Below, in pieces: positions 5,216 to 43,268 of a stretch of 64,000 nt of DNA. The notes below the pieces were generated by a model. The model saw only the letters and a program-made list of their open reading frames with translations. It was not told the origin of the DNA and searched no databases. Every line of letters starts with the position of its first letter. The first letter of the stretch is position 1. The position numbers were made by a program, and so were the translations under genes. Source of the DNA: a virus; IMG/VR virus record IMGVR_UViG_3300044912_000492, positions 1 through 64,000 of that record; one strand, given 5' to 3'.

Positions 5216-5288
5216 CCGAGAGTGGCAGAGTGGCGAAGCGACCCATAACGCAATTGGGTTTTACGTAGGTTCGAGTCCTACCTCTTGA
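5216..5288 (+). ncRNA. tRNA-like element (canonical T-arm, aberrant anticodon loop)
   Basis: - T-arm GTAGG-TTCGAGT-CCTAC.
- 5-nt variable loop TTTAC.
- Anticodon stem ACCCA/TGGGT, but with a 9-nt loop TAACGCAAT.
- Acceptor CCGAGAG/CTCTTGA pairs at 6 of 7 positions.
- D-stem is weak and there is no encoded CCA.
- Could be a degenerate tRNA or an att-type tRNA fragment. Confidence 0.3.
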
Positions 5289-5291
5289 GTT

Positions 5292-6044: not shown

Positions 6045-6142
6045 CCTTATTATTACGCCTAGGGCAGGTAGGTTTGAATAGTTGTCCTCTATCATCCTTG
6101 TTATTACGCTCAGGGGAAGCAGGTTTAAATAGTTGTCCTCTA
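6045..6142. repeat. two tandem ~51-bp direct repeats
   Basis: CCTTATTATTACGCCTAGGGCAGGTAGGTTTGAATAGTTGTCCTCTA versus CCTTGTTATTACGCTCAGGGGAAGCAGGTTTAAATAGTTGTCCTCTA. They lie upstream (minus sense) of the Zn-ribbon gene 5638..5931. Confidence 0.8.
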
Positions 6143-6223
6143 CCAGTTAATTTCTTAACTTTCTATATAGTAACACCACATAAAAACAATTGTCAACTCT
6201 TAATTAATGGATGTTGCATAGGG

Positions 6224-6853
6224 TTAATTAAGTACAGTTTTAGCCACACAATGGGCGATCGCCTTTTGAGTTTTGACTAACTCTTTCTTAAGTTTATCCA
6301 CTTTCTTGGTTCCAATCTTTGACCACTTAAGCTCATCAACTATCTCATTAATCCTAGCGGCGCGAATTTCGCCTAGTGTGGCGATGAGTAAAGTTTTGTC
6401 GATAAGTATGGGAGTATAACCCCATCGCTTCACGATCGCGGTATCACCTTTATACGGTGAATCATCAGGCATTAAATCAATGGTCACTATAATCGTATCT
6501 GCAAACACCATCTCAGTAGCTTTGCTTTGCGAATACTGGAAAAAGAAAAGATTCTCATCACCATCTTTAAACTTTGGGGATTGATTAAAATACTCGTTCA
6601 ACCCGTCAACAATGCCATCACGAATAGGCTTAAAAGCATTGGCTAACCCGTCGCTATCCATAGGCACATTACGAGCCGCAAACTTATGCAAGCTAATCCT
6701 AAGCTGTGATTTTCTGTCCCAATTGAAAAAGGTTTTAGCTTTTCCTGATTCCCTTTGTTGCTTCTTTTCCGCTTGATGCAGTATCCACAATCCGCGCCCG
6801 TTAGCGCTGTTTTCTGGTACTGCATCGATGGGGTATTGGATTTTTAATGTCAT
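6224..6853 (-). CDS. RusA-like Holliday-junction resolvase with C-terminal extension (209 aa)
   Basis: Start moved to ATG 6853 (MTLKIQYP), 13 nt after the upstream stop. VPMDSDGLANAFKPIRDGIVDGL resembles the RusA D.DN..K...D.L catalytic motif; YPIDAVPENSANGR resembles the RusA N-terminal PPS.N motif. Confidence 0.45.
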   Translation of the reverse strand: MTLKIQYPIDAVPENSANGRGLWILHQAEKKQQRESGKAKTFFNWDRKSQLRISLHKFAARNVPMDSDGLANAFKPIRDGIVDGLNEYFNQSPKFKDGDENLFFFQYSQSKATEMVFADTIIVTIDLMPDDSPYKGDTAIVKRWGYTPILIDKTLLIATLGEIRAARINEIVDELKWSKIGTKKVDKLKKELVKTQKAIAHCVAKTVLN

Positions 6854-11651: not shown

Positions 11652-11858
11652 ATGATACTAAGGCTTAAGGAACTAAGAGAGCGTAACGGATTAACTCAAG
11701 TACAACTATCTGAATCAACCAAAATCGGAGTGCAAAACATTGCCAAGATGGAACAAGGACGATCCGAATTCTTTCGTCGCAAGCACATTGATATTTTTTG
11801 CAGTGCGCTTAATTGTAGTGCTGGTGAACTTATAGAGGCGGAAAAGATTAAATTATGA
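11652..11858 (+). CDS. XRE-family (Cro/CI-type) HTH transcriptional regulator (68 aa)
   Basis: LKELRERNGLTQVQLSESTKIGVQNIAKMEQG: canonical XRE HTH; AAGGAG SD. Confidence 0.85.
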   Translation: MILRLKELRERNGLTQVQLSESTKIGVQNIAKMEQGRSEFFRRKHIDIFCSALNCSAGELIEAEKIKL

Positions 11859-12007
11859 GTGACACAGAAAAACAACCCACACCGCAAACCCGTATACCGA
11901 TCGTTGTCACGTCGCAACGTGTAGAAGATCGGTATAGAGTGGATGCATCAAAGACTAAGGCTAAAGATATGGGTGCTAGTTCTAGGATTTTGAGGTTGTT
12001 TGAGTAA
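11855..12007 (+). CDS. small protein (50 aa, below track cutoff)
   Basis: ATG overlaps the XRE TGA (ATGA coupling). Translation: MSDTEKQPTPQTRIPIVVTSQRVEDRYRVDASKTKAKDMGASSRILRLFE. Confidence 0.45.
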   Translation: MSDTEKQPTPQTRIPIVVTSQRVEDRYRVDASKTKAKDMGASSRILRLFE

Positions 12008-12024
12008 AATTACAAGGCAAAACA

Positions 12025-12219
12025 ATGTATAGATTTTTAACTAACTTTCGATGGATTCGCAAATCAGCAGGAAAGAATTGGAGGCTTTTGGATTCTTCTT
12101 TTTTGGTTGATGGCAGTAAGCCTACTTGGTACAACTGGGATATTGTTGCAGCAGATCCTACCATGATGAAAATGATCAATGTTGGATATATCACCATTTT
12201 GAAGAGTGAGAGTTATTGA
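12025..12219 (+). CDS. hypothetical protein (64 aa)
   Basis: Stop overlaps the dcd start (TGATGA coupling). Confidence 0.4.
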   Translation: MYRFLTNFRWIRKSAGKNWRLLDSSFLVDGSKPTWYNWDIVAADPTMMKMINVGYITILKSESY

Positions 12220-12854
12220 TGACGCTAGTTGATTGGGAGATACAGCACAGATGCGGCGATCGCTCTTACGTTCCGCAATGGTGGAATTTAAAGGCATTGG
12301 CTTATAAATACTTTGTGCCATGCCCTAAAAATCCAATGATTGCACCATACGATCCAAGCTTAGTTAATGCTGCTAGCTATGATTTGGAGTTGGGCGACAC
12401 ATTAAAAATCGCTAGAATTGTCGAATACAAGACTGAGTATTTTGCTGTCAATGGCGTTACTCACTCAATGCGAGTCCCTCTAAAGCCTACGGAATGGATA
12501 GACATTGATTTATCAACTGGCTTTGAATATTGGATGCAAGATAACGATTTTATCTTGAGTGAAACAGAGCCGATCTTTCACATTCCCAGAAATGTATCCG
12601 CACAATTTGCACTCAAATCGTCAAGAGGTAGAGAAGGTTACGAACATGCATTAGCAGGATACATAGATCCCGCTTGGCATGACAGTAAGCTGACTGTTGA
12701 GCTTCACAAGATTAATCCTAATCCTGTGGTTTTGTACAAAGGCTTAAAGATTGGTCAAATCATTTTCACTAAAACTAATTCACAGCCGATCCATGCCTAT
12801 GATGTGCGTGGTAGATATAACAAAGACAGTCAAGTACAGGTGAGTAAGGGATGA
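12216..12854 (+). CDS. dcd: dCTP deaminase / dUTPase-superfamily enzyme (212 aa)
   Basis: NAASYDLELGD, LKSSRGREG, GYIDPAWHDSKLTVELHKINP and LKIGQIIF match the Dcd signature (kSS.aR.G; iDPGw.G..tlEl.N; igQ..f). Confidence 0.8.
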   Translation: MMTLVDWEIQHRCGDRSYVPQWWNLKALAYKYFVPCPKNPMIAPYDPSLVNAASYDLELGDTLKIARIVEYKTEYFAVNGVTHSMRVPLKPTEWIDIDLSTGFEYWMQDNDFILSETEPIFHIPRNVSAQFALKSSRGREGYEHALAGYIDPAWHDSKLTVELHKINPNPVVLYKGLKIGQIIFTKTNSQPIHAYDVRGRYNKDSQVQVSKG

Positions 12855-13093
12855 GCAAATGGACGTATCGAATCTCAAAGCAAACTCTCGCAAACGGTGA
12901 TGAGGTGTTTGCTATTCGTGAATTTTATCCCAATAGCAAGGGAGAGTTAACAAGCTGGAGTGCTAACGAGATTACGCCTGTGGGTTTGACGCTGGAGGAT
13001 CTAAAAGGTGAGTTAGCGCTGATTATGCAATGTTTGGATAAGGAAGTGATTGATATTGGAGGTGAAGATAATGGCACAGGACGAGTGGCTTAA
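12851..13093 (+). CDS. hypothetical protein (80 aa)
   Basis: ATGA-coupled to dcd. Confidence 0.5.
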   Translation: MSKWTYRISKQTLANGDEVFAIREFYPNSKGELTSWSANEITPVGLTLEDLKGELALIMQCLDKEVIDIGGEDNGTGRVA

Positions 13094-13655
13094 CATTGGA
13101 CTATGCGGCGCACATGGCACAGGCAAAACGACATTAGCGATCGCTTTGTCGCAAAAGCTAGGGATTCCGTATATTCCCATTGATGCGAGTGAAGTATTTA
13201 CAGATCATGGTTTTCACCCGTCCGATAAGCTTGATATTCGCACTCGCTTATTTTTGCAACAAAAGATTTTAGAGAAAGCTGAGAATATCTGGTTTGATGT
13301 TGATGAGCCTAGTTTTATCTGCGATCGCACACCTCTTGATATGGCTGCTTATTTGCTTGCTGATGTTGGCAATGGTGAGTTAGATAAGCGCACTCAAATT
13401 GAGATTATGGACTATTTGCAAGATTGCTTTAATGTCACGATTCAGTTTTTTGACAAAATTGTATTAGTCCCTCCTGCGATCGCTTTTGTTGAGCGTGAGT
13501 ACAAAGCGGCGATCAATCAGCCGTTAATCTTTAAGCTTCACGCTTTGCTTTTAGGAATGCTTAACACTTTGGATGTGTCTTACAAGGTGTTGCCACAAGA
13601 CTGCTTAGAGATAAGCGATCGCGTCCAGTTTGTTGAAGATTTTATGAGAGAGTAA
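13071..13655 (+). CDS. P-loop NTPase, nucleotide-kinase-like (194 aa)
   Basis: Start at ATG 13071 behind a GGAGGTG SD. Walker A GLCGAHGTGKTTLA; small AAA_28/dNMP-kinase-like size; sits between dcd and thyX. Confidence 0.55.
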   Translation: MAQDEWLNIGLCGAHGTGKTTLAIALSQKLGIPYIPIDASEVFTDHGFHPSDKLDIRTRLFLQQKILEKAENIWFDVDEPSFICDRTPLDMAAYLLADVGNGELDKRTQIEIMDYLQDCFNVTIQFFDKIVLVPPAIAFVEREYKAAINQPLIFKLHALLLGMLNTLDVSYKVLPQDCLEISDRVQFVEDFMRE

Positions 13656-13657
13656 CT

Positions 13658-14638
13658 ATGTTTCAGCCACAAGCCAAAATTATCGCTGATTCCGTTAATC
13701 CTTGCGGCGATCGCTTAACTACTTTTGTATTAACCTATCACCGTCTAGTGCATAGTGAATTTCTCACACATAGAATGCTAAGCAAGAATAGCTCTAGCAG
13801 CCGTGCGATACCAGTAGAAAAGATGATCGCTAAAGTTATTGAAGACAATGTATTCCCACTAGAATTTGGCAAAAATCAAAAGGGGATGACTGCAAAAGAA
13901 TCCGTAGATGATGCAGCGATCGCCGCATCTATGAAGACATGGCAAAAAGCGCGGCTAGATGCTATTGACCACGCATGGGCATTACATAAACAAGGTGTTC
14001 ACAAACAAGTCGTAAATCGCCTATTAGAGCCATTCTCTAGCATTACCGTAATCTGCACTGCTACCGAGTATCAAAACTTCTTTGCTCAGCGTTGCCATCC
14101 TGATGCTCAGCCTGAAATACAAGCTTTGGCGATCGCCATGCGTGAAGCCTATGAAGCAAGCGAACCAGACCAATTAGAAGACGGAGACTGGCATATACCA
14201 TTTTTGGGTGAAGACGAAAAAAACGATGATGGAGAATTTGTTGCTAGTGAAGCTGAATTGCAATGGCATAAAAACTTGATTGGCAAGGTCACAGACAATG
14301 ATTTTATCAAAATCGCAACTGGGCGGTGTGCTAGAGTTTCCTATCTCAATCATGATGGCATTCGCAACATTCAAGACGATATCAAACTGCATGATCGCCT
14401 ACTTAGCTCTAAACCACCGCACCTATCACCATTTGAGCATTGTGCTATGGCATTAGGTGAGAGCGAGGCAAGAGCTAACTTTGTTGGCTTTGAGTCATAT
14501 CGGTATCAGTTAGAGCATAACTACGAACCGACAGAAGCAGAAATAGCTATTTTGTCCGCTACTGAAGAAGAGATTTTGCAAATGCAAAGTAGATTTAAAG
14601 ATATTTCAATTGAAACATTACCAAGGCGCAAAAGATGA
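13658..14638 (+). CDS. thyX: ThyX-like flavin-dependent thymidylate synthase homologue (326 aa)
   Basis: THRMLSKNSSSSR fits the ThyX motif RHRxxSxxxxSxR except for the first R (here T). The protein is longer than typical ThyX. Confidence 0.65.
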   Translation: MFQPQAKIIADSVNPCGDRLTTFVLTYHRLVHSEFLTHRMLSKNSSSSRAIPVEKMIAKVIEDNVFPLEFGKNQKGMTAKESVDDAAIAASMKTWQKARLDAIDHAWALHKQGVHKQVVNRLLEPFSSITVICTATEYQNFFAQRCHPDAQPEIQALAIAMREAYEASEPDQLEDGDWHIPFLGEDEKNDDGEFVASEAELQWHKNLIGKVTDNDFIKIATGRCARVSYLNHDGIRNIQDDIKLHDRLLSSKPPHLSPFEHCAMALGESEARANFVGFESYRYQLEHNYEPTEAEIAILSATEEEILQMQSRFKDISIETLPRRKR

Positions 14639-14877: not shown

Positions 14878-14983
14878 TGAAGAAATTAATCTTGCTGTTG
14901 CCTTGATCTCAGGATGAACACAGATTGAGCGGTATGGCTTTATAGGGTAAAATAAAAACACCGTAGATGTACGAGAAATATTT

Positions 14984-15505
14984 ATGTATGGGATAGAAAC
15001 TGAAGACAAAACTACAGCTTTAGCTAGTGCGCTTAGTTACTGGATTTTTCGCTGTAGGGATAAGGCTAAAAGCCCTGCGATGGGACTTAAAACATGGGAA
15101 TACTTTCAGAGCAGTATCCAAAATGCTGCTATTCCCTCAAGAAGTATTGACGATTACATTGAGAATCTAGCCAAAAAACTAATCGTTGCACACCTCAATC
15201 CAAAAGAATGGACTCGCATAATTGCGCCTAATCAGGTGATTTTACGCGCTTCTCTTAATCCTGATGGCAGCATGGGAGACATTCAGCAAATTGATAGCGA
15301 TCAACATTTGCAGTGGCTAGGATGGCAAGACATTCTCAATTCGCTTAAGCCTGAAGGAATAGGCGATCGCCATATTCTCAATTTGTGCAAATCAAAACCG
15401 CATATTATTACTACCTATTGTCGCGTTCGATTTGAATGCGATCGCGCTTTGAATATTCCCGATGAACCAGAAAACACTCTAGATGTAGAGGCTAACAATG
15501 CTTAA
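14984..15505 (+). CDS. possible Cas11-like small subunit (173 aa)
   Basis: Call is positional only. The stop overlaps the cas7-like start by 8 nt, the composition looks helical, and the size matches type IV Cas11. No diagnostic motif. Confidence 0.3.
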   Translation: MYGIETEDKTTALASALSYWIFRCRDKAKSPAMGLKTWEYFQSSIQNAAIPSRSIDDYIENLAKKLIVAHLNPKEWTRIIAPNQVILRASLNPDGSMGDIQQIDSDQHLQWLGWQDILNSLKPEGIGDRHILNLCKSKPHIITTYCRVRFECDRALNIPDEPENTLDVEANNA

Positions 15506-16676
15506 TTACAATCCCCACGATCGCCATAATATCAAGCTACATTTGCAGATTACTTTGCTACAGCCACTCTCACATATCAGTGAATCGGTAGGCAATCAGA
15601 CGAATTTACGCACGATGAAAGTGACAGACTTAGAGGGGAATCCCTCTGAGGTGTTTTGCCTATCTGGCAACTCCCTACGCAATCGTATTTTAAGGCGATG
15701 CGGTATTGATTCCTTCCTATCTCAAATCGGTGTACAAGTATCGCCAACGATGCACCATGCTTTATTTTGTGGCGGCGCGATTGATGGAGGCACGGGCAAC
15801 GATTTGGATTTGGATAAAAAGATCCGTCAGCTTTTGCCATGCCTATCAGTACTAGGAACTGCAAAACCAAAAGGCTTGTTTGGTGTTGGTGATGCTCAGA
15901 TGGTGCATGGTCGGATCGCCGTTGGTGATGCGTATCTTGCCTGTGTAGAGAGCGCTGAATACATCTATCGACAATTTCCACCTGCGTTACCCATTGATGT
16001 TATTTCGGCGTTAGAGCAGATCGTTGATGGCAAGGATTTACAGCACTCGCAACGGGTTAATCAATGGCTAGGGATTGATACTAAAGTCAATCAATACGAT
16101 CTCAAGGCTTTGCTTGATGAGTGGCTCCCATACTTAGGTGAGAAGTTGCGATATTACTCCGATTGGCTTACCTACAGCCAAAAAACGCGGCGCGATTCTC
16201 TTCACGATCCTAACTTTGCTAAGCACTTGATTGGTGCTAGTCCACAGCCAAAAATCGGACAGGGCGATCTTTTTGTAGTAGCTGATGATTCCCCCAAAAA
16301 GAAGCCAGAAAAAGAGAAATCGCAACAAATGATCATGGGTAATTGGCTACTCCAAACAGGTGCTACCTTATACAGCTATTGGAGCGCAAACGTCACCAGA
16401 ATCGAAGAAGGATTTATTGCTGATGCGTTACTCAAGTTTGCTGAATCGCCATATTTAGGCGGTCAATCTGGAACAGGTTGCGGATTATGCTCTATGCAAT
16501 TTTGGTTTGAGACTGCTGACGGTGATCGCGGCGAGTTTATGACAATTACACCTCACGCGCAAAAACTAAGCGATCGCGCTTCTGAATCTCATGCAAGGTA
16601 TAAAGAATATCTTGAAGATTACAAAGGGTTTCTAGCTGATTCCAAGAGCGATATCAGGAGTTTACTTAATGGGTAG
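15498..16676 (+). CDS. csf2: RAMP protein, Cas7 (Csf2)-like (392 aa)
   Basis: - N-terminal strand ITLLQPLSHISESVG.
- SGNSLRNRILRR at aa 56-67 (compare GSSLRG.LR of Csm3/Cmr4/Csf2).
- C-terminal glycine loop PYLGGQSGTGCGL. Confidence 0.6.
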   Translation: MLNYNPHDRHNIKLHLQITLLQPLSHISESVGNQTNLRTMKVTDLEGNPSEVFCLSGNSLRNRILRRCGIDSFLSQIGVQVSPTMHHALFCGGAIDGGTGNDLDLDKKIRQLLPCLSVLGTAKPKGLFGVGDAQMVHGRIAVGDAYLACVESAEYIYRQFPPALPIDVISALEQIVDGKDLQHSQRVNQWLGIDTKVNQYDLKALLDEWLPYLGEKLRYYSDWLTYSQKTRRDSLHDPNFAKHLIGASPQPKIGQGDLFVVADDSPKKKPEKEKSQQMIMGNWLLQTGATLYSYWSANVTRIEEGFIADALLKFAESPYLGGQSGTGCGLCSMQFWFETADGDRGEFMTITPHAQKLSDRASESHARYKEYLEDYKGFLADSKSDIRSLLNG

Positions 16677-16678
16677 TA

Positions 16679-16721
16679 CAAACTATTTTAATTTATGTAT
16701 TGCATAAATTAAAATAGTTTG
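16679..16721. promoter_or_regulatory. perfect 19-bp-arm AT-rich palindrome
   Basis: CAAACTATTTTAATTTATG-tattg-CATAAATTAAAATAGTTTG begins 3 nt after the cas7-like stop. No T-run follows. Confidence 0.6.
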
Positions 16722-16787
16722 CTATATTGATATTCATGAGGCAAGGGCAGCCACCCAAACCTCACTCAAACCCACTAACACAAAGCC

Positions 16788-17333
16788 ATGAACACCAGCC
16801 AAATCGCACAAATCGCAACCTCACTCAATGTCTCCCCAAACCAAATCAAAAGAGCCGAAGAATGGGCAAACGTTTTGTTCGTTGTGGTTGTTGGCAAGGG
16901 CTCTCGATTCGTATCCAAAAAGGTATTAAAAATGGAAATGACCCAAATGACCCGTTCGCAATTAGCCAAGAAGATCGCTGCCGATCTAGATTGTACTACC
17001 AAAATCTGGGAAAAAGGCGGCAAAGTCCGAGTTTATCTTTCCCATCGCGGCAAAGATTACGGATTTGTTGAAATCACCGCTAAGGGCGTAGAATTTGCGC
17101 TCACGGGCTATGCAAATAACGCTTATGGCTCCGATATCCGCAATTCGGCTGAGGGCATTGAAATCAACGAACCATCAGCAGTTGTAGGCGATGTCCGCCG
17201 CCTTACCAGTGAAGAAGCCGACCAACTAGCGGCAATGTCTCGCGGCAAAGCTAACGACACCGAACGCGCTCTAAATGCCATGTATGGCAGAGGCGGATGG
17301 GATCATTGGGATCGTGAAGATTACGAAGGTTAG
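16788..17333 (+). CDS. hypothetical protein (181 aa) between cas7-like and cas5-like genes
   Basis: Longest of three overlapping frames here; no motif recognised. Confidence 0.5.
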   Translation: MNTSQIAQIATSLNVSPNQIKRAEEWANVLFVVVVGKGSRFVSKKVLKMEMTQMTRSQLAKKIAADLDCTTKIWEKGGKVRVYLSHRGKDYGFVEITAKGVEFALTGYANNAYGSDIRNSAEGIEINEPSAVVGDVRRLTSEEADQLAAMSRGKANDTERALNAMYGRGGWDHWDREDYEG

Positions 17334-17392
17334 AGACGAAGCGCCGCCCGTAGCGTCTAATACGGATAGTAAATATTATTCAAACAAAAAAA

Positions 17393-17563
17393 ATGAAAAG
17401 CTATCAAGAAGTACAGACTGAAGCAATTGCAATCTATGGATCTAATATTGCAGTTTTGCCAAAAGGTAGAAATGTTTTTGCATCCCGCGCCCAAGCATTC
17501 CTTTCATATTTAGGAGAGATCCAAGATGGTGAAGGGCATTCATATTTAATCTATAAAAAATAA
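17393..17563 (+). CDS. small protein (56 aa, below track cutoff)
   Basis: MKSYQEVQTEAIAIYGSNIAVLPKGRNVFASRAQAFLSYLGEIQDGEGHSYLIYKK; the TAATG junction couples it to 17563..17760. Confidence 0.45.
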   Translation: MKSYQEVQTEAIAIYGSNIAVLPKGRNVFASRAQAFLSYLGEIQDGEGHSYLIYKK

Positions 17564-17760
17564 TGCCAGACCCTACCCCTCGCAATCCCAAAGGGGCAGG
17601 GCGCAAGCCTAGCCCCGACGAACCGAAACCCACCCAGAGTTTTCGCTCCGATCCAGACATCAAAACCTATCTTGCCACCATCCCTACAGGCGAAAAAACC
17701 AGAATCATCAATCAAGCAATCAGAGAGTATATATTGAGGCAAAACCAATCACATGATTAA
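17563..17760 (+). CDS. small DNA-binding protein, GRP-motif family (65 aa)
   Basis: GAGRKPSPDEPKP arm followed by IPTGEKTRIINQAIREYI; paralogous in architecture to 7540..7752. Its stop overlaps the cas5-like start. Confidence 0.5.
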   Translation: MPDPTPRNPKGAGRKPSPDEPKPTQSFRSDPDIKTYLATIPTGEKTRIINQAIREYILRQNQSHD

Positions 17761-18436
17761 TCTTCAAATAATCGCGCACATGGCAACGCCTCTCTTTGCC
17801 TATGATGATTGGTCGCCTAGCTTTGATGCTCTCATTGAATATCAATTGCTCGACTCACTAGGATTGATAGAGCCTAATCCCACAGAGGCAAGCATTATTA
17901 AAAATCTGCCATTGCTATTTGAGCAAATGCCGATCGCCCGAAAGATGCTAAATGGTGAATGGTATTGGGCGGTAAGCTCACCTCATTACATTGAAAATCA
18001 TCAGCAAATTTCGCAATATGTAAAGCGCTGGGATAAGCAAGAATTACACCTTGATTTAAAAGGGAAACGCGGTAAATTTAGTGGTAGTGAAGGGCATTTT
18101 AAAGCTTATAAACTACCTAAATACAACCGCGAAATGCAGACTATCCACTGGTTTTGTATTGGCGATGCAAATAAGATTAGTCAACTGATTCTAAATGTTT
18201 CGCACCTTGGCAAGAAGCGATCGCAAGGGTGCGGACAAGTCCATAAATGGGAGGTGCTACCGTTTGAGCATGATTGGCATTTGTGGCGCGGCGATAGTTT
18301 AGCCAGACCTATACCAGTTGGGATGATTGAGCCGCCTCAAGCTATTAATATGATGAACTGGGGATGGCGACCGCCTACATGGTTGGCTGCTAATAAATCT
18401 ATGTGCTATATGCCAACGGACAACGTATGTCGATAA
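17753..18436 (+). CDS. csf3: RAMP protein, Cas5 (Csf3)-like (227 aa)
   Basis: Glycine-rich loop HLGKKRSQGCGQV near the C-terminus; N-terminal strand LQIIAHMATPLF. Size and cysH adjacency fit Csf3, but it could alternatively be Cas6-like. Confidence 0.5.
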   Translation: MINLQIIAHMATPLFAYDDWSPSFDALIEYQLLDSLGLIEPNPTEASIIKNLPLLFEQMPIARKMLNGEWYWAVSSPHYIENHQQISQYVKRWDKQELHLDLKGKRGKFSGSEGHFKAYKLPKYNREMQTIHWFCIGDANKISQLILNVSHLGKKRSQGCGQVHKWEVLPFEHDWHLWRGDSLARPIPVGMIEPPQAINMMNWGWRPPTWLAANKSMCYMPTDNVCR

Positions 18437-19176
18437 CTTTTGGTAGTGGACTAAATGCTAGATGGCTAACACGTAAACGCGACAATGCGATCGCCCTAAT
18501 TACTGAATGGTTAAAGCTTTGCGATTATCAAGTTTACGGCTCTATTTCGGGCGGCAAAGATTCGCTAGTTATGGCGCATCTGATTAGAGAAGTTTATCCA
18601 GATTGTCCGTTTCTATGGGTAAATCAAGGACATTTAGCCGAATGGGATGATTGCGTAGAATTGCTTTATTACCTACGAGATGAACTCAAATGGAACATCA
18701 TAGAACTATGCCCACCATTGGGATTGATGCAGCTTTACCGCAAATTAGGTATGAGTTTTGATGGTCAGTTCAATGCTCTTGATAAAAAACAATGTCATGA
18801 ACTTTTGCTATATCCGCTAAATGAATGGGCGGAAATGCATAACGCAAAAGGCTATGCATGGGGACTAAGGCAAGAGTCTAGAGGGCGCAAAGAATATTTG
18901 CGGTCTAACGGTTTGCTTTACACAAAGAAAGATGGAATCGTTATTTGCTCTCCTATTGGCTTTTGGAAAACTGAGGATATTTGGCATTACATAGATTGGC
19001 AAAAGCTACCCTATGCCACTATTTACGATGTCGAAGGGCGCATGACTTTCCGTAATGGATGCCCTATCGATACAGCGCTTTCTAACTGGGGGCGTATGGC
19101 ACACCTAAGAAAGAATTACCCCAAGATTTATTTTGAATTTGCTGAGCTATTTCCAGAGGTAAAAAACTATGCTTAA
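18427..19176 (+). CDS. cysH: CysH-like PAPS-reductase-family PP-loop enzyme (249 aa)
   Basis: PP-loop SISGGKDS (SGGxDS). ATG 18427 overlaps the cas5-like stop by 10 nt (alternative start 18403). Confidence 0.75.
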   Translation: MSITFGSGLNARWLTRKRDNAIALITEWLKLCDYQVYGSISGGKDSLVMAHLIREVYPDCPFLWVNQGHLAEWDDCVELLYYLRDELKWNIIELCPPLGLMQLYRKLGMSFDGQFNALDKKQCHELLLYPLNEWAEMHNAKGYAWGLRQESRGRKEYLRSNGLLYTKKDGIVICSPIGFWKTEDIWHYIDWQKLPYATIYDVEGRMTFRNGCPIDTALSNWGRMAHLRKNYPKIYFEFAELFPEVKNYA

Positions 19177-19810
19177 TTTTGACGATATCTCTATTGTGAT
19201 TCGTACCGTATCAGCACATAGAATGCACTTACTGCAAAGATTGCAACAACAATTGAAGCCTCTTGATTTTGTCATTTCTGATAGGTCGGACAGACAAAAC
19301 ACCTATGCTGATGATTGGTTTAATGCAATGCGTAAAGGTCAAGATCAATCTAAAAAATGGCTAATCCATCTAGAAGATGACGCTTTTCTGTCACCTGATT
19401 GGAAGGTAAGCGTATTAAACCTTTTAAATCAAATCCCTTTAGATATTAAGGTCTGTTCGTTTTATTCTGGGAAAAGAATGAAGCAAGAATTTGAACATTT
19501 ATCTAAACCACATTGGGAATACTTGCGTGGATCGTCTTTCTTTATGCACCAATGCACGACTTGGAAAATGGAGTACGTTGATTATTTTGTTGATGGAATA
19601 AAAAGCCAATGGGCTTCACATCCTGAATACAGAAAAATTGATTTTATTGATCAAGCCTTAATGGATTTTATGGTACAAAAAAAAGAAAAGTTTGCGCGAG
19701 TTTTCCCTAGTTTAGTCCAACACACAGGCGACAAAAGTTTGATTGGTCATGCAAACAGTAAAAGTCGTCAATCATCTAGTTTCACCTATTTTTATGGAGA
19801 TACACCTTAA
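19169..19810 (+). CDS. glycosyltransferase-like protein (213 aa)
   Basis: ISIVIRTVS N-terminal strand and IHLEDDAFLSPDW (an EDD DxD-type motif), as in GT-A/GT25-like enzymes. Overlaps cysH by 8 nt. Confidence 0.4.
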   Translation: MLNFDDISIVIRTVSAHRMHLLQRLQQQLKPLDFVISDRSDRQNTYADDWFNAMRKGQDQSKKWLIHLEDDAFLSPDWKVSVLNLLNQIPLDIKVCSFYSGKRMKQEFEHLSKPHWEYLRGSSFFMHQCTTWKMEYVDYFVDGIKSQWASHPEYRKIDFIDQALMDFMVQKKEKFARVFPSLVQHTGDKSLIGHANSKSRQSSSFTYFYGDTP

Positions 19811-20283
19811 TGCCATTCATTAAAAAAGGAACATTGCTAGAAGATTGGCAGACAGCTAATCCTATAACTTTATTAGGCGATTTAGAATTGCCAGAATTGC
19901 CATCACTAAATAATTTTATTCAAAAAGAATATGGCGATCGCAACGGTGTAAAAGCAATCAATTACAACCGCAAAGACAAGAGCGCTCCTTATTTTGTTTG
20001 TTGCCGTGGCGCATGGAGAATGCACACAGATCCAGGGTACAACCGATATGCACATCATGTAGTTTTAATGACTTGTAATGCAAAACTAACGGGCTATGCC
20101 GATAATTATGTTGTTAGAGTAGGACAAGCTTTAATTATTGATTCTCATTCTCCCCACGCTTTAATGTCAATCGATCCTACTGAAGAAACATTTTTTTTAT
20201 CTTTAGCTCAAGATTTAACAGAAAAAAATACTAATTTCATTAAAACAATTGACATTGAGAAATATTTAAATGAAATCAAATAA
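19810..20283 (+). CDS. possible cupin / 2OG-Fe(II)-dioxygenase-like protein (157 aa)
   Basis: WRMHTDPGY (HxD) and a downstream IIDSHSPHAL (distal His) suggest a facial-triad arrangement. TAATG-coupled to the GT-like gene. Confidence 0.3.
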   Translation: MPFIKKGTLLEDWQTANPITLLGDLELPELPSLNNFIQKEYGDRNGVKAINYNRKDKSAPYFVCCRGAWRMHTDPGYNRYAHHVVLMTCNAKLTGYADNYVVRVGQALIIDSHSPHALMSIDPTEETFFLSLAQDLTEKNTNFIKTIDIEKYLNEIK

Positions 20284-20944
20284 CTGCTATCTTTGCGCCG
20301 CCCCTAACGCGACAAAACCTTTAGCCCTTAAGAACACCTTTACAAGTCATAATGCCGCTAGATGTCCTGATTCTAAGTATCTATGCGATCGCTGTGCATG
20401 GTGTATTCCGTTAAGGGCTTTTTATTGGAATGAAACCAAGGGTAAGTACAGCGCGATCTATTCCCGCAACTGGTCATGGTTACTTTCTGCTAATGATGCT
20501 TACGGCTCTTATCCTAAATTTGGTAATCAACATACTGAAGGGAAAGACACGCTAGAGATAGTTGATCGCCTTCCTACTCGCTCTCAAATTAGGGCATGGT
20601 TGCTTGATCCACCAAAGCCGCCCTTCACTATTTGCATTGCCGAATCAGGGCAAAAGCATATATTACCGTGGGCACTAGAAGCCAATAATCGCGATTATTT
20701 TCCAGTGCAATTTGAGCTTGATACTTTGCACATTTATCGATCTGCTTTTACCCATTTGCTCACACGATATGAAGAGCTTATGGCTATGGGATTTAGCAAA
20801 ACTGAAATCAATAGCGGTAACTATCGAAGCGACAAATTAGCTAAGTGCATCAGTGAATATGCATCATGTGAGGCTGTGATTGCTGCTAAACGTGGTAATC
20901 GGTTGCTGGATTTGGTAAGCTATGTCGCAAAAGTATCAGAGTAA
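20270..20944 (+). CDS. csf1: Zn-finger protein, Csf1 (small Cas8)-like (224 aa)
   Basis: N-terminal CYLC (aa 6-9) plus C-x6-CDRCAWC cluster (aa 33-45). Size and operon context fit type IV Csf1. Confidence 0.4.
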   Translation: MKSNNCYLCAAPNATKPLALKNTFTSHNAARCPDSKYLCDRCAWCIPLRAFYWNETKGKYSAIYSRNWSWLLSANDAYGSYPKFGNQHTEGKDTLEIVDRLPTRSQIRAWLLDPPKPPFTICIAESGQKHILPWALEANNRDYFPVQFELDTLHIYRSAFTHLLTRYEELMAMGFSKTEINSGNYRSDKLAKCISEYASCEAVIAAKRGNRLLDLVSYVAKVSE

Positions 20945-23065: not shown

Positions 23066-23141
23066 AATCATTCGCGCTCTGTGATAGCGATATCACAGAG
23101 CGCGATAATGCTAGAATCGCTGTAAATTCGTATGTTGATTT

Positions 23142-24228: not shown

Positions 24229-25473
24229 ATGGACGGATTAAAGCCTCTCTACGGTGGTTTACTCAAGATACCCGCGCCATTAGAACTTAGTGGTAATTGG
24301 TGTTCAACTAATTGTCCCTATTGCTTCGCGAATCTTAACGCCCCTACTCGTACACTTGACGTTAACGGTGTTTCAAGACTATTAGCTGACTATCAAAACA
24401 GAAATACCATCGAGGGGTATTTACTACGTGATGGCTATCCTGTAATTGTCAGCAATCATATTGATCCGTTTAGCGCCTCAAACTATCGTCAGATGATTCC
24501 TTTTATGGAAACCATGACAGAGCTTGGTATACCTTACTCTGTGCAAACCAAGGGTGGAAAAGGATGGGAAAAGGTACTTGAGTTTATGCCGATCGGTGTT
24601 TGGTATGTGTCGATATCATTCTCCGATGATGAGACACGCAAATCTATAGAGCCTAGCGCACCGCCTTTAGAGCATCGCTATGAGTTGCTAGAAGCATTGA
24701 TATCAAAAGGGCATACGGTAATTGTCGGATGCAACCCATGTGAACCAGATTGGCTGTTAGACCCTATTCCGTTCTTTGACAATCTAAAAGAGATTGGCGT
24801 ATTTGGTACATGGATGGAAAATCTGCACATTAATACCAAGCAAAAAAAAGTAATGTCAGATCGCGATCGCAAGTTGTTAGGCGAAGACTTAATCAGTGAT
24901 TGCCTCAAGAAGAAACATAGCGATCCTTACAGGAAAGAATTTGTCGAGATGTGTAGGGAATACTCGCGATCAATAGGGTTAGAGAATTACAGCATTGCTA
25001 ATGGTAGGTATTCAAACTTTTTTGATGCTTACAAGATGTATCCGAAATTATTCCCAGTAGTTCAGCAATTTATTAATCGGTGCGCTACGTTAAATCGTGA
25101 GTTTTTCACACAACGAGAATGGGTAGAGTTTTTTACCCCGTTACTACCTACATTCGTAACATCGCAAAATTATCACTATATTGATAGCAATGTCAGAATG
25201 TGTCCTGAAAAGGCGCTAGGCTTTAAAGTACCAAAGAATCCAACGTTTGAGACAATCTTGAAATGCTCTTTGAAGTCTCATAATGTACCGTTTCATCCAG
25301 TTAACAAAGCTGCTTTCAGTTATGCTGTAGATAGTAATGGTAATTATTTATTAGACGATGTAGATAAATTGCCTATACTATGTTATGGCGCGGATGGGTG
25401 GACTCATACTATGATTGAGTATGATGACAATGAGATTAATGAGGTCGATTATGTTGGAATCATTAGACAATAG
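24229..25473 (+). CDS. radical SAM enzyme (414 aa)
   Basis: CSTNCPYC (CX3CX2C) at aa 25-32 in the GNWCSTNCPYCFAN context, similar to SplB/COG1533-type radical SAM proteins. Confidence 0.75.
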   Translation: MDGLKPLYGGLLKIPAPLELSGNWCSTNCPYCFANLNAPTRTLDVNGVSRLLADYQNRNTIEGYLLRDGYPVIVSNHIDPFSASNYRQMIPFMETMTELGIPYSVQTKGGKGWEKVLEFMPIGVWYVSISFSDDETRKSIEPSAPPLEHRYELLEALISKGHTVIVGCNPCEPDWLLDPIPFFDNLKEIGVFGTWMENLHINTKQKKVMSDRDRKLLGEDLISDCLKKKHSDPYRKEFVEMCREYSRSIGLENYSIANGRYSNFFDAYKMYPKLFPVVQQFINRCATLNREFFTQREWVEFFTPLLPTFVTSQNYHYIDSNVRMCPEKALGFKVPKNPTFETILKCSLKSHNVPFHPVNKAAFSYAVDSNGNYLLDDVDKLPILCYGADGWTHTMIEYDDNEINEVDYVGIIRQ

Positions 25474-41405: not shown

Positions 41406-42150
41406 TGTCAGTTCCCTCTAAGTTTTTGAGATACAAACGAGCGCGATCGTGTAGCCATTGCAAGTTAGGTCTTGCGTAATGTTCCCAATAGTTTGGGACA
41501 TCGTTGTCAGCTTTTGCGTGAATGCCATCAACTAGCCTTAAGTTTTTGGCGGCGTAGTTGTCTAGGTAAATCACAATCCAGTGATCTTTGACTTCTTTGG
41601 GGATGTCATCGGTAAAAGCTTCATGAAGGTAAACTTTGCGCCATCTAGTCTCAATTTGTTGGGTTACCTTGTTTCGTTTTGTGCCAATCGGTAAAAAGCT
41701 CCACTCCCTTGTTTCTTCTACAGGTGCTAGTAAAGCAATCGGATCAGGTATCTCAAAATCTTCACGCTTTGCGCCTTTAGCATGGCGGCAATACGATTCA
41801 ATAAAATCCTTACGAGCGATCGCTGGTTGTGTGCATTGGTTTTTGATGTACCACCATCCGCCGATCGCGTTTAGTGCTTTCAAGCCAACTACTGAAAACG
41901 GGGTGTCGATGTCTTGCCATTCGCGCTCGGCTCGTTCTTCGATTGTGCCAATAGCCAAGCCAATTAACTCATCAGGGGTAGGAAAGTATTTGCCAATCAA
42001 TGCGATTGACACTGCATCAATAAACTCCTTTTCGTTAATTTGAGATGAAATTTGCTTGTAATAGTTTTGGACTGCTTTATCTGGTAAGGACTTATCGAAT
42101 GTTGCCATTAATTCAGTCATGTACTCAATAAATACTGAAACTTCAATCAT
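41395..42150 (-). CDS. helicase loader, G39P-like N-terminal domain (251 aa)
   Basis: FDKSLPDKAVQNYYKQISSQINEKEFIDAVSIALIGKYFPTPDELI fits the G39P-family pattern. Lies between the organiser and helicase genes. Confidence 0.45.
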   Translation of the reverse strand: MIEVSVFIEYMTELMATFDKSLPDKAVQNYYKQISSQINEKEFIDAVSIALIGKYFPTPDELIGLAIGTIEERAEREWQDIDTPFSVVGLKALNAIGGWWYIKNQCTQPAIARKDFIESYCRHAKGAKREDFEIPDPIALLAPVEETREWSFLPIGTKRNKVTQQIETRWRKVYLHEAFTDDIPKEVKDHWIVIYLDNYAAKNLRLVDGIHAKADNDVPNYWEHYARPNLQWLHDRARLYLKNLEGTDNEI

Positions 42151-43268
42151 GATGCTAATCCCATTGCTTGCTGTAGTCGGATGTAGGTTTGCGCTTTTTT
42201 AACCTCGGTACTAGACATCAGGACATCGCCTTGTGCCGATTCTTTTTTGGGTGATTGCTCGTATTTCTCAAAGTTTTGATACGGCTTATCATTGCTGAGA
42301 TATTGCTCTAAGCTCCAACGCTTCAAAACTTTTTTGTGAAACGGATCGCTTTGCGCGTACCAAAGGCTTTTCTGAAAAATCTCCATAGCGCGATCGCCAT
42401 GTGTTGCAGTAAACGTCTCCAGTTTTGAGATGGCAGTCTTTGATAGCGACTCATGGTTTACCCAGTCTTCAACCTTGTCTTGTACCCACACATCAAGAAA
42501 TGGCTGATACTTACCTCGCTTCGCTTCAAAGCTTGGCTTTTTGGCTTTAGCGCCAGTCGCGAAACTTTCGGGCGGCAAAAGGGAAAGGGGGGTAGGGGGG
42601 ATTGGGTTTTCTTTTTGATCTGCCATGCAATCAATCAAAACTTGCTTTGCTGGTAAATCTGAATTAGAAATTAATACAGCCTCAGAAGCAAATAAATCAC
42701 GCGGATGCGTTTCTTTATTGATCTCCTTATTAGTTTTTTTATTAATTTCTTTTATATTGATCATTTCGACTTGAGGTCGATCTCTCATTTCGACTTGAGG
42801 TCGATCTCTCATTTCGACTTGAGGTCGATCTCTCATTTCGACTTGAGGTCGATCTCTCATTTCGACTTGAGGTCGATCTCTAAGTTGCTCCACGTCGCCT
42901 TTAATCGTGCTTTTTAAGGGGCGCTCAAATTTGCTTAAACCCTCATAATTGACTCGATACCATTTAGTTTGATCGCGCCTGTTAGAGTCTGGTTGGCAAG
43001 AAACGATAATATTTTGTGTCTCAAGTCTGGCAAACATTCTAGAAATACCGTCTACAGTCATCCACTGAAGCTTGTCTTGCCATTGCTTTAATGAGTATTT
43101 ACACCATAAAAATCCTTGGTAGAGTGTGCGATCATCAGAATGCTCTTCCTTGATTTCAACAAACCAGTGGATTTGTTGGACTGCGATAGATCCGTTAATA
43201 CCTATCAATTTCGCAAGACTTGGTAAAACCATTAAAGGTTTTTCATTCAGTAAAAGATGTGTACTCAT
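42147..43268 (-). CDS. replisome organiser / origin-binding initiator (373 aa)
   Basis: N-terminal winged-helix-like region; internal (RDRPQVEM)x5 encoded by the iterons. The organiser-loader-helicase order matches SPP1 G38P-G39P-G40P. Confidence 0.55.
   Translation of the reverse strand: MSTHLLLNEKPLMVLPSLAKLIGINGSIAVQQIHWFVEIKEEHSDDRTLYQGFLWCKYSLKQWQDKLQWMTVDGISRMFARLETQNIIVSCQPDSNRRDQTKWYRVNYEGLSKFERPLKSTIKGDVEQLRDRPQVEMRDRPQVEMRDRPQVEMRDRPQVEMRDRPQVEMINIKEINKKTNKEINKETHPRDLFASEAVLISNSDLPAKQVLIDCMADQKENPIPPTPLSLLPPESFATGAKAKKPSFEAKRGKYQPFLDVWVQDKVEDWVNHESLSKTAISKLETFTATHGDRAMEIFQKSLWYAQSDPFHKKVLKRWSLEQYLSNDKPYQNFEKYEQSPKKESAQGDVLMSSTEVKKAQTYIRLQQAMGLAS
42762..42881. repeat. five perfect 24-bp tandem repeats (putative origin iterons)
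   Basis: CATTTCGACTTGAGGTCGATCTCT x5 with no mismatch. Flanked at 42725-42761 by an AT-rich tract (ccttattagtttttttattaatttcttttatattgat). Confidence 0.9.

Follow-up and report, generated by a model that had tools for sequence, protein, structure and literature searches.

A divergent, array-less type IV-B-like CRISPR-Cas effector module with a CysH-like enzyme gene in a cyanophage genome

Introduction

CRISPR-Cas systems of subtype IV-B are known from plasmids (mostly actinobacterial), from some prophages and phages, and from the archaeal Fuxiviridae (PMC10848311, PMC7038947, PMC11656645), and form the one widespread subtype without an established function (PMC8175902; PMC11656645). Here we describe a locus at positions 14984-20944 (+ strand, 10 open reading frames (ORFs)) of a 64-kb stretch of metagenome-assembled viral DNA (IMG/VR record IMGVR_UViG_3300044912_000492, positions 1 to 64,000), which is referred to below as the window. 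This locus is very probably an array-less type IV-B effector module (cas11, csf2, csf3 and csf1) combined with a gene for a CysH-like enzyme and carried by a cyanophage with a circular dsDNA genome. Since IV-B systems have already been found in viruses, a virus-borne example is not categorically new. What is new is a highly divergent clade of such modules, apparently confined to cyanobacterial phages, an extension of the operon by a glycosyltransferase (GT)-like and a cupin-like gene, and the modular exchange of enzyme, Cas6 and Csf1 genes among near-identical phages.

The IV-B systems of actinobacterial plasmids (for example that of Mycobacterium sp. JS623, represented by PDB 7JHY, and those of Rhodococcus plasmids such as pUSK13_2) have the same set of csf1, cas11, csf2, csf3 and a gene for a CysH-like protein without the catalytic cysteine, and the phage locus resembles plasmid IV-B, as defined in PMC7038947 and PMC8175902, in that an array, Cas6, adaptation genes, a helicase and a nuclease are all missing. 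It differs from the plasmid systems in being carried by a tailed phage of cyanobacteria and in the strong divergence of its proteins, which score below the NCBIfam equivalog cutoffs. The phage Cas7 is ~90 residues longer than its plasmid counterparts; in an AlphaFold2 model it has an inserted helical segment and, at residues 247-274, a loop that is disordered. The phage gene order is cas11-cas7-cas5-cysH-csf1, with insertions of cargo genes and the added GT/cupin-like pair. The IV-B locus of the Fuxiviridae (PMC10848311) is likewise a virus-encoded effector module that lacks an adaptation module and has a CysH-like gene beside it. Unlike the window phage, the fuxivirus carries a mini-array, in which a single spacer accompanies two repeats; its host belongs to the Bathyarchaeia rather than the cyanobacteria, and the GT/cupin-like insertion is undescribed in it. 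Type IV-A systems (PDB 8RC2, 8RC3, 7XG0) provide the best structural matches for the model of the phage Cas7, and the Cas5 profile matches a IV-A chain (7xfz). IV-A and the window module, the latter as judged from its genes, have in common that they are nuclease-free Csf surveillance complexes.

Gene content of the module

The ORFs that a sequence-only reading of the window, made without database searches, had proposed for this region are all present on the + strand (Table 1), as is every motif that it had quoted for the Cas7, Cas5, CysH-like and Csf1 proteins. The translation of cas7 contains ITLLQPLSHISESVG, SGNSLRNRILRR and PYLGGQSGTGCGL, that of cas5 contains HLGKKRSQGCGQV, and that of csf1 contains CYLC and CPDSKYLCDRCAWC. 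The short start/stop overlaps also reported in that reading are real and involve seven successive gene pairs: cas11/cas7 (8 nt), o56/o65 (1 nt), o65/cas5 (8 nt), cas5/cysH (10 nt), cysH/GT (8 nt), GT/o157 (1 nt) and o157/csf1 (14 nt). The sole gaps within the module are 111 nt on the 3' side of cas7 and 59 nt on the 3' side of o181.

Table 1. Features of the module, its surroundings and the variant form found in sister phages. Coordinates refer to the window unless another locus (L label) is named.
Feature	Position	Strand	Evidence or remark
Sigma-70-like promoter candidate TTGAGC-17-TAAAAT	14925..14953	+	30 nt 5' of cas11; consensus scan
cas11-like small subunit, 173 aa	14984..15505	+	PADLOC typeIV_Cas11 E 5.8e-14 and 1.2e-11
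csf2/cas7, backbone subunit, 392 aa	15498..16676	+	PADLOC Csf2_0_IV E 6.7e-43
o181, cargo ORF	16788..17333	+	No family match
o56, small cargo ORF	17393..17563	+	L006 and L023 only; no family match
o65, small cargo ORF	17563..17760	+	L006 and L023 only
csf3/cas5, 227 aa	17753..18436	+	PADLOC Csf3_0_IV E 4.5e-40
cysH-like PP-loop ATP alpha-hydrolase, CasCysH type, 249 aa	18427..19176	+	PF01507 E 1.5e-14
GT-A-type glycosyltransferase-like, 213 aa	19169..19810	+	phrog_854 'glucosyltransferase' E 9.6e-10
o157, HxD...H triad, cupin-like	19810..20283	+	Invariant residues in remote homologs
csf1, small Cas8-like large subunit, 224 aa, 4-Cys cluster	20270..20944	+	PADLOC Csf1_0_IV E 1.5e-25, residues 4-216
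T5orf172/MUG113-domain genes, two in phage genome	22136-23065 (directly 3' of module); L032 6563-7165
CysH2 + Coq4-like/Cupin_2 + Cas6 variant	L011, L014, L016, L019, L020, L025, L028		About 11.2-14.5 kb in each

Profile and structural evidence for the Csf proteins

Profile searches uphold all five gene assignments of the sequence-only reading. The type IV-specific profiles of PADLOC match four of the module proteins with E-values of 6e-14 to 7e-43, and the fifth matches PF01507 (E 1.5e-14), so that chance can be dismissed as the source of the pattern. Pfam-A alone detects the PAPS (3'-phosphoadenosine 5'-phosphosulfate) reductase domain PF01507 and a faint GT2 match, and nothing else in the module. 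The NCBIfam equivalog models for Csf1 (TIGR03114, E 1.3e-10, under cutoff), Csf2 (TIGR03115, E 7e-6, 25.5 bits against a cutoff of 130) and Csf3 (TIGR03116, E 2.1e-15 over the full length, 57 bits against a cutoff of 140) all match the corresponding phage proteins. For identical proteins in public databases, precomputed matches to newer Pfam models list Csf3 (PF27782) and, faintly, Csf1.

The evidence is most extensive for Cas7. A profile built from 28 homologs matches the PDB chains of Cas7c (11fs, 2.5e-8), IV-B Csf2 (7jhy, 6e-7) and IV-A3 Csf2 (8rc2, 2e-6). An AlphaFold2 model from the same number of homologs has a predicted local distance difference test score (pLDDT) of 83 and a predicted TM-score (pTM) of 0.80, and in a Foldseek search of the PDB its best matches are the Csf2 subunits of IV-A3 and IV-A1 (E 3e-14 to 1e-9), followed by type III Csm3 and then IV-B 7jhy (6e-7). 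The Cas5 profile matches the solved Csf3 chain 7xfz (E 5e-8). The similarity to RAMP-type Cas7 and Cas5 folds that had been read from the glycine-rich motifs is thus borne out for both proteins. When Cas7 is compared with references of IV-B, IV-A and IV-C, the pairwise and profile E-values are all weak and cannot tell these subtypes apart; the best named relative is a Csf2 protein of a Rhodococcus plasmid (E 4e-15).

The two remaining subunits, a cysteine-cluster protein and a 173-residue protein, had been taken for Csf1 and, with a question mark, Cas11, and it is to the PADLOC Csf1 and typeIV_Cas11 profiles, rather than to unrelated families, that they match. The cysteines C6, C9, C39 and C42 of Csf1 are invariant across six phage orthologs. 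In every related phage locus, the gene directly 5' of cas7 is an ortholog of cas11 (E 1e-44 to 1e-61).

The CysH-like enzyme

The CysH-like protein retains the SGGKDS PP-loop and terminates before the ECGLH motif with the catalytic cysteine, as seen by alignment with the E. coli CysH sequence, which agrees with its counterpart in a PDB alignment. The NCBIfam CysH models give it 41-44 bits, far from the cutoffs of 154-165 that define a true PAPS or APS (adenosine 5'-phosphosulfate) reductase. When a collection of plasmids was searched by tblastn, 60 of 60 matches were actinobacterial (on Rhodococcus, Mycobacterium, Gordonia and related plasmids). In the one plasmid inspected, Rhodococcus pUSK13_2, a RAMP gene ~3.8 kb from cysH codes for a Csf2 homolog; the plasmid proteins match the window Cas7 with E 4e-15 and the window CysH with E 5e-22. 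Phage PAPS reductases are weaker matches and align over 65-70% of the length only. Grouping of the PP-loop enzyme with ordinary phage PAPS reductases, which the sequence-only reading had named as an outcome that would speak against a IV-B module, is therefore not what is seen: plasmid genes match better and the catalytic cysteine is absent. Weak PADLOC matches to two other members of the PAPS-reductase family, BrxP and SspD, were also recorded.

A retained PP-loop without the catalytic cysteine is the pattern described for the CasCysH proteins of IV-B systems (PMC8175902). The SGGKDS motif, the missing cysteine and the actinobacterial plasmid matches together indicate that the phage gene, as far as its sequence tells, fits the description of type IV-B CasCysH rather than that of a sulfur-assimilation gene.

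Absence of an array and assignment to subtype IV-B

Scans for tandem and spaced repeats found no CRISPR array in the 64-kb window, nor in the ~11.4 kb that complete the circular genome, so that the 'array-less' description given in the sequence-only reading holds for the whole ~75.4-kb phage; these scans are seed-based, and degenerate mini-arrays could escape them. An Rfam scan of the window returned no family. Cas6, Cas1, DinG, RecD within the locus and Cas10 were not found among the module ORFs or the scanned large ORFs of unknown function, and none of the 10 module ORFs matches a helicase or HD family. The sole helicases, one DnaB-like and one Dda-like, are encoded 18-23 kb away on the opposite strand, in the replication block.

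The three defining components of IV-A, namely DinG, Csf5/Cas6 and an array, are thus all absent, and Cas11 and cysH are present; the module is therefore not of type IV-A. By its predicted gene content, and by the missing helicase, Cas6, array and adaptation genes, it qualifies as subtype IV-B.

The carrier phage and its hosts

The window is 100% identical to a Joint Genome Institute (JGI) contig of 75,667 nt, whose ends overlap by 271 nt. This terminal overlap implies a circular map of ~75.4 kb, of which 64 kb lie in the window. Phage genes in the window code for a large terminase, a portal, a major capsid protein, a DnaB-type primase-helicase, a Dda-like helicase, a DnaD-like loader, an endolysin-like peptidase and a tail fiber protein. 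No integrase was found among the subset of proteins checked.

Several observations agree with the view, already taken in the sequence-only reading, that the carrier is a cyanophage. The terminase is nearest (~35% identity) to terminases of Leptolyngbya, Microcystis and Nostoc phages. The palindromic cyanobacterial HIP1 octamer GCGATCGC occurs 83 times in the 64 kb, against 0.72 copies expected from shuffled sequence, which is a more than 100-fold excess and strongly marks the host lineage (examples are at positions 290, 15363, 16570, 18217, 20385 and 63354). Seven copies lie inside the module, where they are as dense as elsewhere in the genome. In NCBI, proteins of the same or nearly the same sequence are found in the bins of Cyanobacteriota and Pseudanabaena metagenome-assembled genomes (MAGs). 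More distant phages that share the module carry nblA; NblA is not detectable in the window phage. Among the relatives (loci labeled L006-L042), L039 has 3.0 HIP1 sites per kb whilst L028 and L030 have none, and related phages thus probably span HIP1-rich and HIP1-poor hosts. No match to a GenBank phage was found by megablast at the DNA level or by tblastn with Cas7; no relative of the phage has been isolated and sequenced.

Relatives of the module and selection on its genes

A collection of 5.8 billion proteins contains 187 homologs of Cas7, all unnamed and many on contigs of 40-125 kb, and among 185,579 species-representative genomes there is one match, on a 4.6-kb Dolichospermum MAG contig. 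Together with the lack of a copy in GenBank phages, these numbers indicate a clade that is phage-restricted and undescribed; it appears restricted to phages of cyanobacteria, and no description of it was found in the literature searched.

All five core genes are kept, in varying order, in L028-L031 and L038, the Cas7 proteins of which are just 43-56% identical to that of the window. The order cas11-cas7-cas5-cysH-csf1 occurs uninterrupted in L038 and L007. The sequence-only reading had called the module rearranged, which is right in so far as there are insertions and is overstated otherwise, this being the base order of the clade. Among close relatives (up to 19), the ratio of nonsynonymous to synonymous polymorphism (pN/pS) is 0.18 for cas11, 0.09 for cas7, 0.20 for cas5, 0.05 for cysH and 0.21 for csf1. 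The core genes are intact and under purifying selection, start and stop codons overlap through most of the operon, and HIP1 sites are as dense in it as elsewhere, all of which speaks for a module that is functional rather than decayed.

What follows cas5 varies between relatives. CysH of the window lineage (CysH1) is the sole enzyme in this slot in L007, L030 and L038, and is accompanied by the GT-like and cupin-like genes in the window, L023 and L039. Sister phages with Cas11, Cas7 and Cas5 ~90% identical to those of the window encode a second CysH lineage (CysH2, with SWGKDS) on the 3' side of cas5, then a Coq4-like or Cupin_2 protein and then a genuine Cas6 (PF09559, E 1e-33 to 1e-51). These Cas6-bearing sisters have no detectable csf1 (except L028) and no array within 10 kb either side, and represent a type IV variant that is Cas6-positive and array-less. 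Their Cas6 has no close named cellular homolog, and there is thus no sign of recent capture from a host. In L009, an N6/N4 DNA methyltransferase (11809-12423; PF01555, E 4e-8) occupies the cysH position 3' of cas5. An enzyme is therefore always present in the slot and its identity varies (CysH1, CysH2 or methyltransferase). The variants define Cas11-Cas7-Cas5 as the conserved part of the module and its 3' half as a swappable cassette that always includes an enzyme.

Repeats were found near some of the related modules. The 95-kb cyanophage of L031 has a genuine CRISPR array at 16612-17080, which starts ~850 nt past csf1 and consists of seven repeats of 37 nt (GTTTCCTCCCACCCCAACTCTTTCGCCCCTTAGCAAG) with six spacers (33-37 nt). 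A Cas12f/TnpB-like gene lies 3.7 kb past this array and could own it instead of the Csf module. None of 185,579 GTDB species genomes contains the repeat exactly, so that no host can be named from it, and no spacer has a match in the fetched loci. The observation extends to L042 (8163-8554) and L041. In L009, two perfect 30-nt repeats ending GATTGAAAG / GGGATTGAAAG lie 72 nt apart in an intergenic region (6598-6729), 2.7 kb 5' of cas11, and may be a mini-array; nothing corresponding to this pair is present in the window. A 2 x 38-nt repeat at the start of csf1 in L028 was also considered as a mini-array and was rejected because it duplicates the csf1 start region.

Inserted ORFs

The sequence-only reading had noted three extra ORFs between cas7 and cas5 and two enzymes between cysH and csf1. 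Both groups are present, and they are not equivalent, the trio being variable cargo and the pair a recurrent sub-module. The trio occurs in just two other loci, L006 and L023, which marks it as variable cargo. At the DNA level o181 is found in 2 of 22 close relatives, which are these two; a diverged homolog of 160 aa is encoded elsewhere in the L009 module (E 6e-11), and phmmer detects nothing in the distant relatives L028-L031 at E<=1e-3. The o65 protein has weak matches to ParR (E 0.08) and to phrog_38823 (E 0.0055), and is possibly a ribbon-helix-helix DNA binder.

The GT-like protein has, in addition to its PHROGs match (Table 1), a match to Glycos_transf_2 that is under cutoff (E 0.0085), and its LEDDA sequence is a DxD-like motif. 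For o157, an exhaustive HMMER search recovered 34-35 remote homologs. Residues H72, D74, H116, R79, D111 and S114 are invariant in 34 of these, four of which have a weak Cupin_2 match. Compared by hhalign with the Cupin_2 protein in the equivalent slot of the sister phage L020, o157 gives E 1.9e-4 and a probability of 48%.

The GT/o157 pair recurs between cysH and csf1 in L023 and L039, the GT-like gene being at the same position in both with 81-83% amino acid identity. The flanks of L039 are otherwise unrelated to the window phage. The extended module, with GT and o157, thus behaves as a mobile cassette. A second csf1-similar stretch is present in L039 (1611-1907; corresponding to window 20408-20725 with up to 84% identity by tblastx), ~1.3 kb 5' of cas11, which suggests a csf1 fragment or duplication.

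Proposed mode of action and alternatives

Taken as a whole, the explanation that we favor, a functional IV-B module with the mode of action outlined here, is in our judgment likely. According to PMC7937560, as relayed in PMC8175902, the Csf2 and Cas11 subunits of IV-B form intertwined filaments on RNA, and a IV-B complex produced in E. coli assembled on heterogeneous non-CRISPR RNA. The phage Csf2 would, as in that solved complex, polymerize on RNA together with a minor filament of Cas11, and Csf3 and Csf1 would act as caps. Because the phage has neither an array nor Cas6, the RNA would have to come from the infected cell, in the form of host CRISPR RNA (crRNA) or another small RNA. PP-loop ATP alpha-hydrolases work via adenylated intermediates. 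The translationally coupled enzyme cassette, which here would comprise an adenylating ATP alpha-hydrolase of the CasCysH type, a glycosyltransferase and a cupin-like protein, would act on nucleic acid held or recognized by the complex. This enzyme-delivery step is proposed tentatively, as a possibility that we would not bet on by itself. The module would be expressed together with the nucleotide-metabolism genes that precede it, and its role would lie in phage-host or phage-phage conflict (counter-defense or competition between elements) rather than in adaptive immunity; the early counter-defense role suggested in the sequence-only reading is likewise conjectural.

A number of observations weigh against parts of this explanation. 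The NCBIfam scores of the Csf proteins are 25-57 bits against curated cutoffs of 130-140 bits, a shortfall that shows the clade to be divergent, and neither the Cas11 profile nor the Csf1 profile has a sequence match among PDB chains. The GT-A and cupin assignments are weak; the AlphaFold2 model of o157, made from an 8-sequence alignment, has a pLDDT of 37, which leaves its fold unproven. The methyltransferase swap is found at one locus, L009. CasCysH has been viewed as an 'inactivated' reductase (PMC11656645), a view that allows a purely structural role for the CysH-like protein. Complex formation, RNA loading and enzymatic activity are all predicted. Finally, the Cas6 genes of the sister phages and the seven-repeat array near the module of L031 favor ordinary guidance by crRNA, perhaps without a modification step.

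The last point is central to an alternative in which no chemistry is involved. The phage Csf complex would load crRNAs processed by the Cas6 of the host, with the CysH-like protein as a structural accessory, and would thereby either sequester these crRNAs, with an anti-CRISPR effect, or use the spacer memory of the host to silence rival phages or plasmids. Silencing by transcriptional repression is how type IV-A systems operate. A full gene set for a surveillance complex in a phage with no array or Cas6 of its own is what this alternative leads one to expect, and the gain of Cas6 without a nearby array in sister phages and the array beside csf1 in L031 point the same way; both sponge and scavenging hypotheses have been published (PMC8175902; PMC7038947). 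It leaves unexplained, however, why cysH is near-invariant and so strongly constrained and why enzymes are swapped in the slot that it occupies. Moreover, the sole purified IV-B complex ignored co-expressed crRNAs (PMC8175902), a multi-protein anti-CRISPR has been judged unlikely (PMC7038947), and the repeat of L031 is without an exact match in the species genomes. We consider crRNA capture of this kind unlikely. A different set of genes is emphasized if the phage is assumed to hypermodify its own DNA or RNA to evade restriction, with the CysH-like, GT-like and cupin/dioxygenase-like proteins working together with the dCTP-deaminase-, kinase- and ThyX-like proteins encoded upstream, and with the Csf proteins as a binding scaffold that is not guided. 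The position of the module directly after the DCD, AAA_28 and Thy1 genes in the same strand block, the embedding of the GT-like and HxD...H proteins in the operon, the DNA methyltransferase in place of cysH in L009, and the membership of the DNA-modifying DndC, SspD and BrxP in the PAPS-reductase family, with the weak PADLOC matches to the latter two, are all in keeping with this idea. Most relatives, however, are without GT and o157, and several are without the adjoining ThyX-like gene, so that the linkage on which it depends is not conserved; in addition, CasCysH lacks the cysteine required for Dnd-type sulfur chemistry (PMC8175902). Hypermodification as the function of the module is accordingly improbable in our view.

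It would also be conceivable that the locus is an eroding, plasmid-derived type IV remnant that happens to lie next to an ordinary phage PAPS-reductase auxiliary metabolic gene. The NCBIfam scores below the curated cutoffs, the interruption of the operon by unrelated ORFs and the placement of the enzyme in 'PAPS reductase, auxiliary metabolic gene' families by PHROGs could be cited for this. Against it, each gene is intact and evolves under purifying selection, the five-gene set is kept across phages with strongly diverged Cas7 proteins, the module is dense in HIP1 sites of the host type, and the enzyme lacks the catalytic cysteine of PAPS reductases and finds its best matches among genes of plasmids, in one case next to a Csf2 homolog. 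The selection, the conservation of the set and the missing cysteine effectively exclude a chance association with a decaying remnant, to which we give a very small probability.

From the preferred reading, a functional IV-B module, a broader and more speculative proposal can be derived. Cyanophages may harbor a phage-restricted type IV lineage built from two parts, a conserved Cas11-Cas7-Cas5 RNA-binding core and an interchangeable 3' effector cassette; we regard this as doubtful at present. The cassette may take the form of CysH1, with or without the GT-like and cupin-like proteins, plus Csf1, or of CysH2 with a Coq4-like/cupin protein and Cas6. Further forms may be a DNA methyltransferase with Csf1 and, in one relative, an array beside the module. 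If this proposal is true, the Csf filament would serve as a general platform, guided or scaffolded by RNA, that delivers nucleic-acid-modifying enzymes. A functional logic would thereby be proposed for IV-B for the first time, and viruses would be using a CRISPR-derived activity of a new class. Since close relatives carry alternative versions of the module, the clade forms a natural comparative series, useful for asking what the role of the CysH partner is and which RNA the complex loads.

Neighboring genes and further observations

The genes directly 5' of the module, in the same strand block, occupy 12216-14638 and code for a dCTP-deaminase-like (DCD) protein, an AAA_28 P-loop protein and a 326-aa Thy1/ThyX-domain protein. 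A radical-SAM-like protein of 414 aa is encoded 3' of the module (24229-25473). These genes, together with the GT-like and cupin-like genes, could point to DNA hypermodification, as judged from their family resemblances. The promoter candidate 5' of cas11 (Table 1) possibly marks the start of the module transcript; it is a weak candidate, as sigma-70-like sites are fewer in the region than in shuffled sequence. The first strong hairpin on the 3' side of the module, with a 15-bp stem, is at 23072-23105, after the first T5orf172/MUG113 gene. Neither the promoter scan nor the terminator scan showed enrichment over shuffled sequences, and the timing of expression therefore rests on gene order.

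Solo or extra Csf3/Cas5-like genes of cyanophages are present in L036 (6932-7645), L029 (7972-8697) and L030 (14088-14711, - strand). That of L036 is g60 of the Cylindrospermopsis phage Cr-LKS4, which has been isolated and sequenced, and is annotated as hypothetical. This lone gene (E 1e-22) is distantly related to the window cas5, and the phage has no GT/cupin pair and no CRISPR annotation. The Skermania phage SPI1 (L037, 2656-6289), an actinophage in GenBank, carries, as orf40-44, Csf2-, Csf3- and CysH-like genes that are distantly related to those of the window (E 7e-7, 3e-11 and 1e-6), again with no GT/cupin pair and no CRISPR annotation. From sequence similarity, orf40-44 probably represents a IV-B module that has gone unnoticed in a cultured phage.

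Outside the module, the gene for the DnaD-like replication initiator/helicase loader (42147-43268, - strand) contains five perfect tandem copies of the 24-nt sequence TCATTTCGACTTGAGGTCGATCTC at 42761-42881; the copies resemble iterons and may mark the origin of replication. In L011 (17464-17574) there is a similar repeat, of 21 nt x5. The window has a single tRNA gene, for tRNA-Ala(CGC), at 5216-5289, and a 51-nt tandem duplication (84% identity) at 6045-6145 that is kept in the identical contig.

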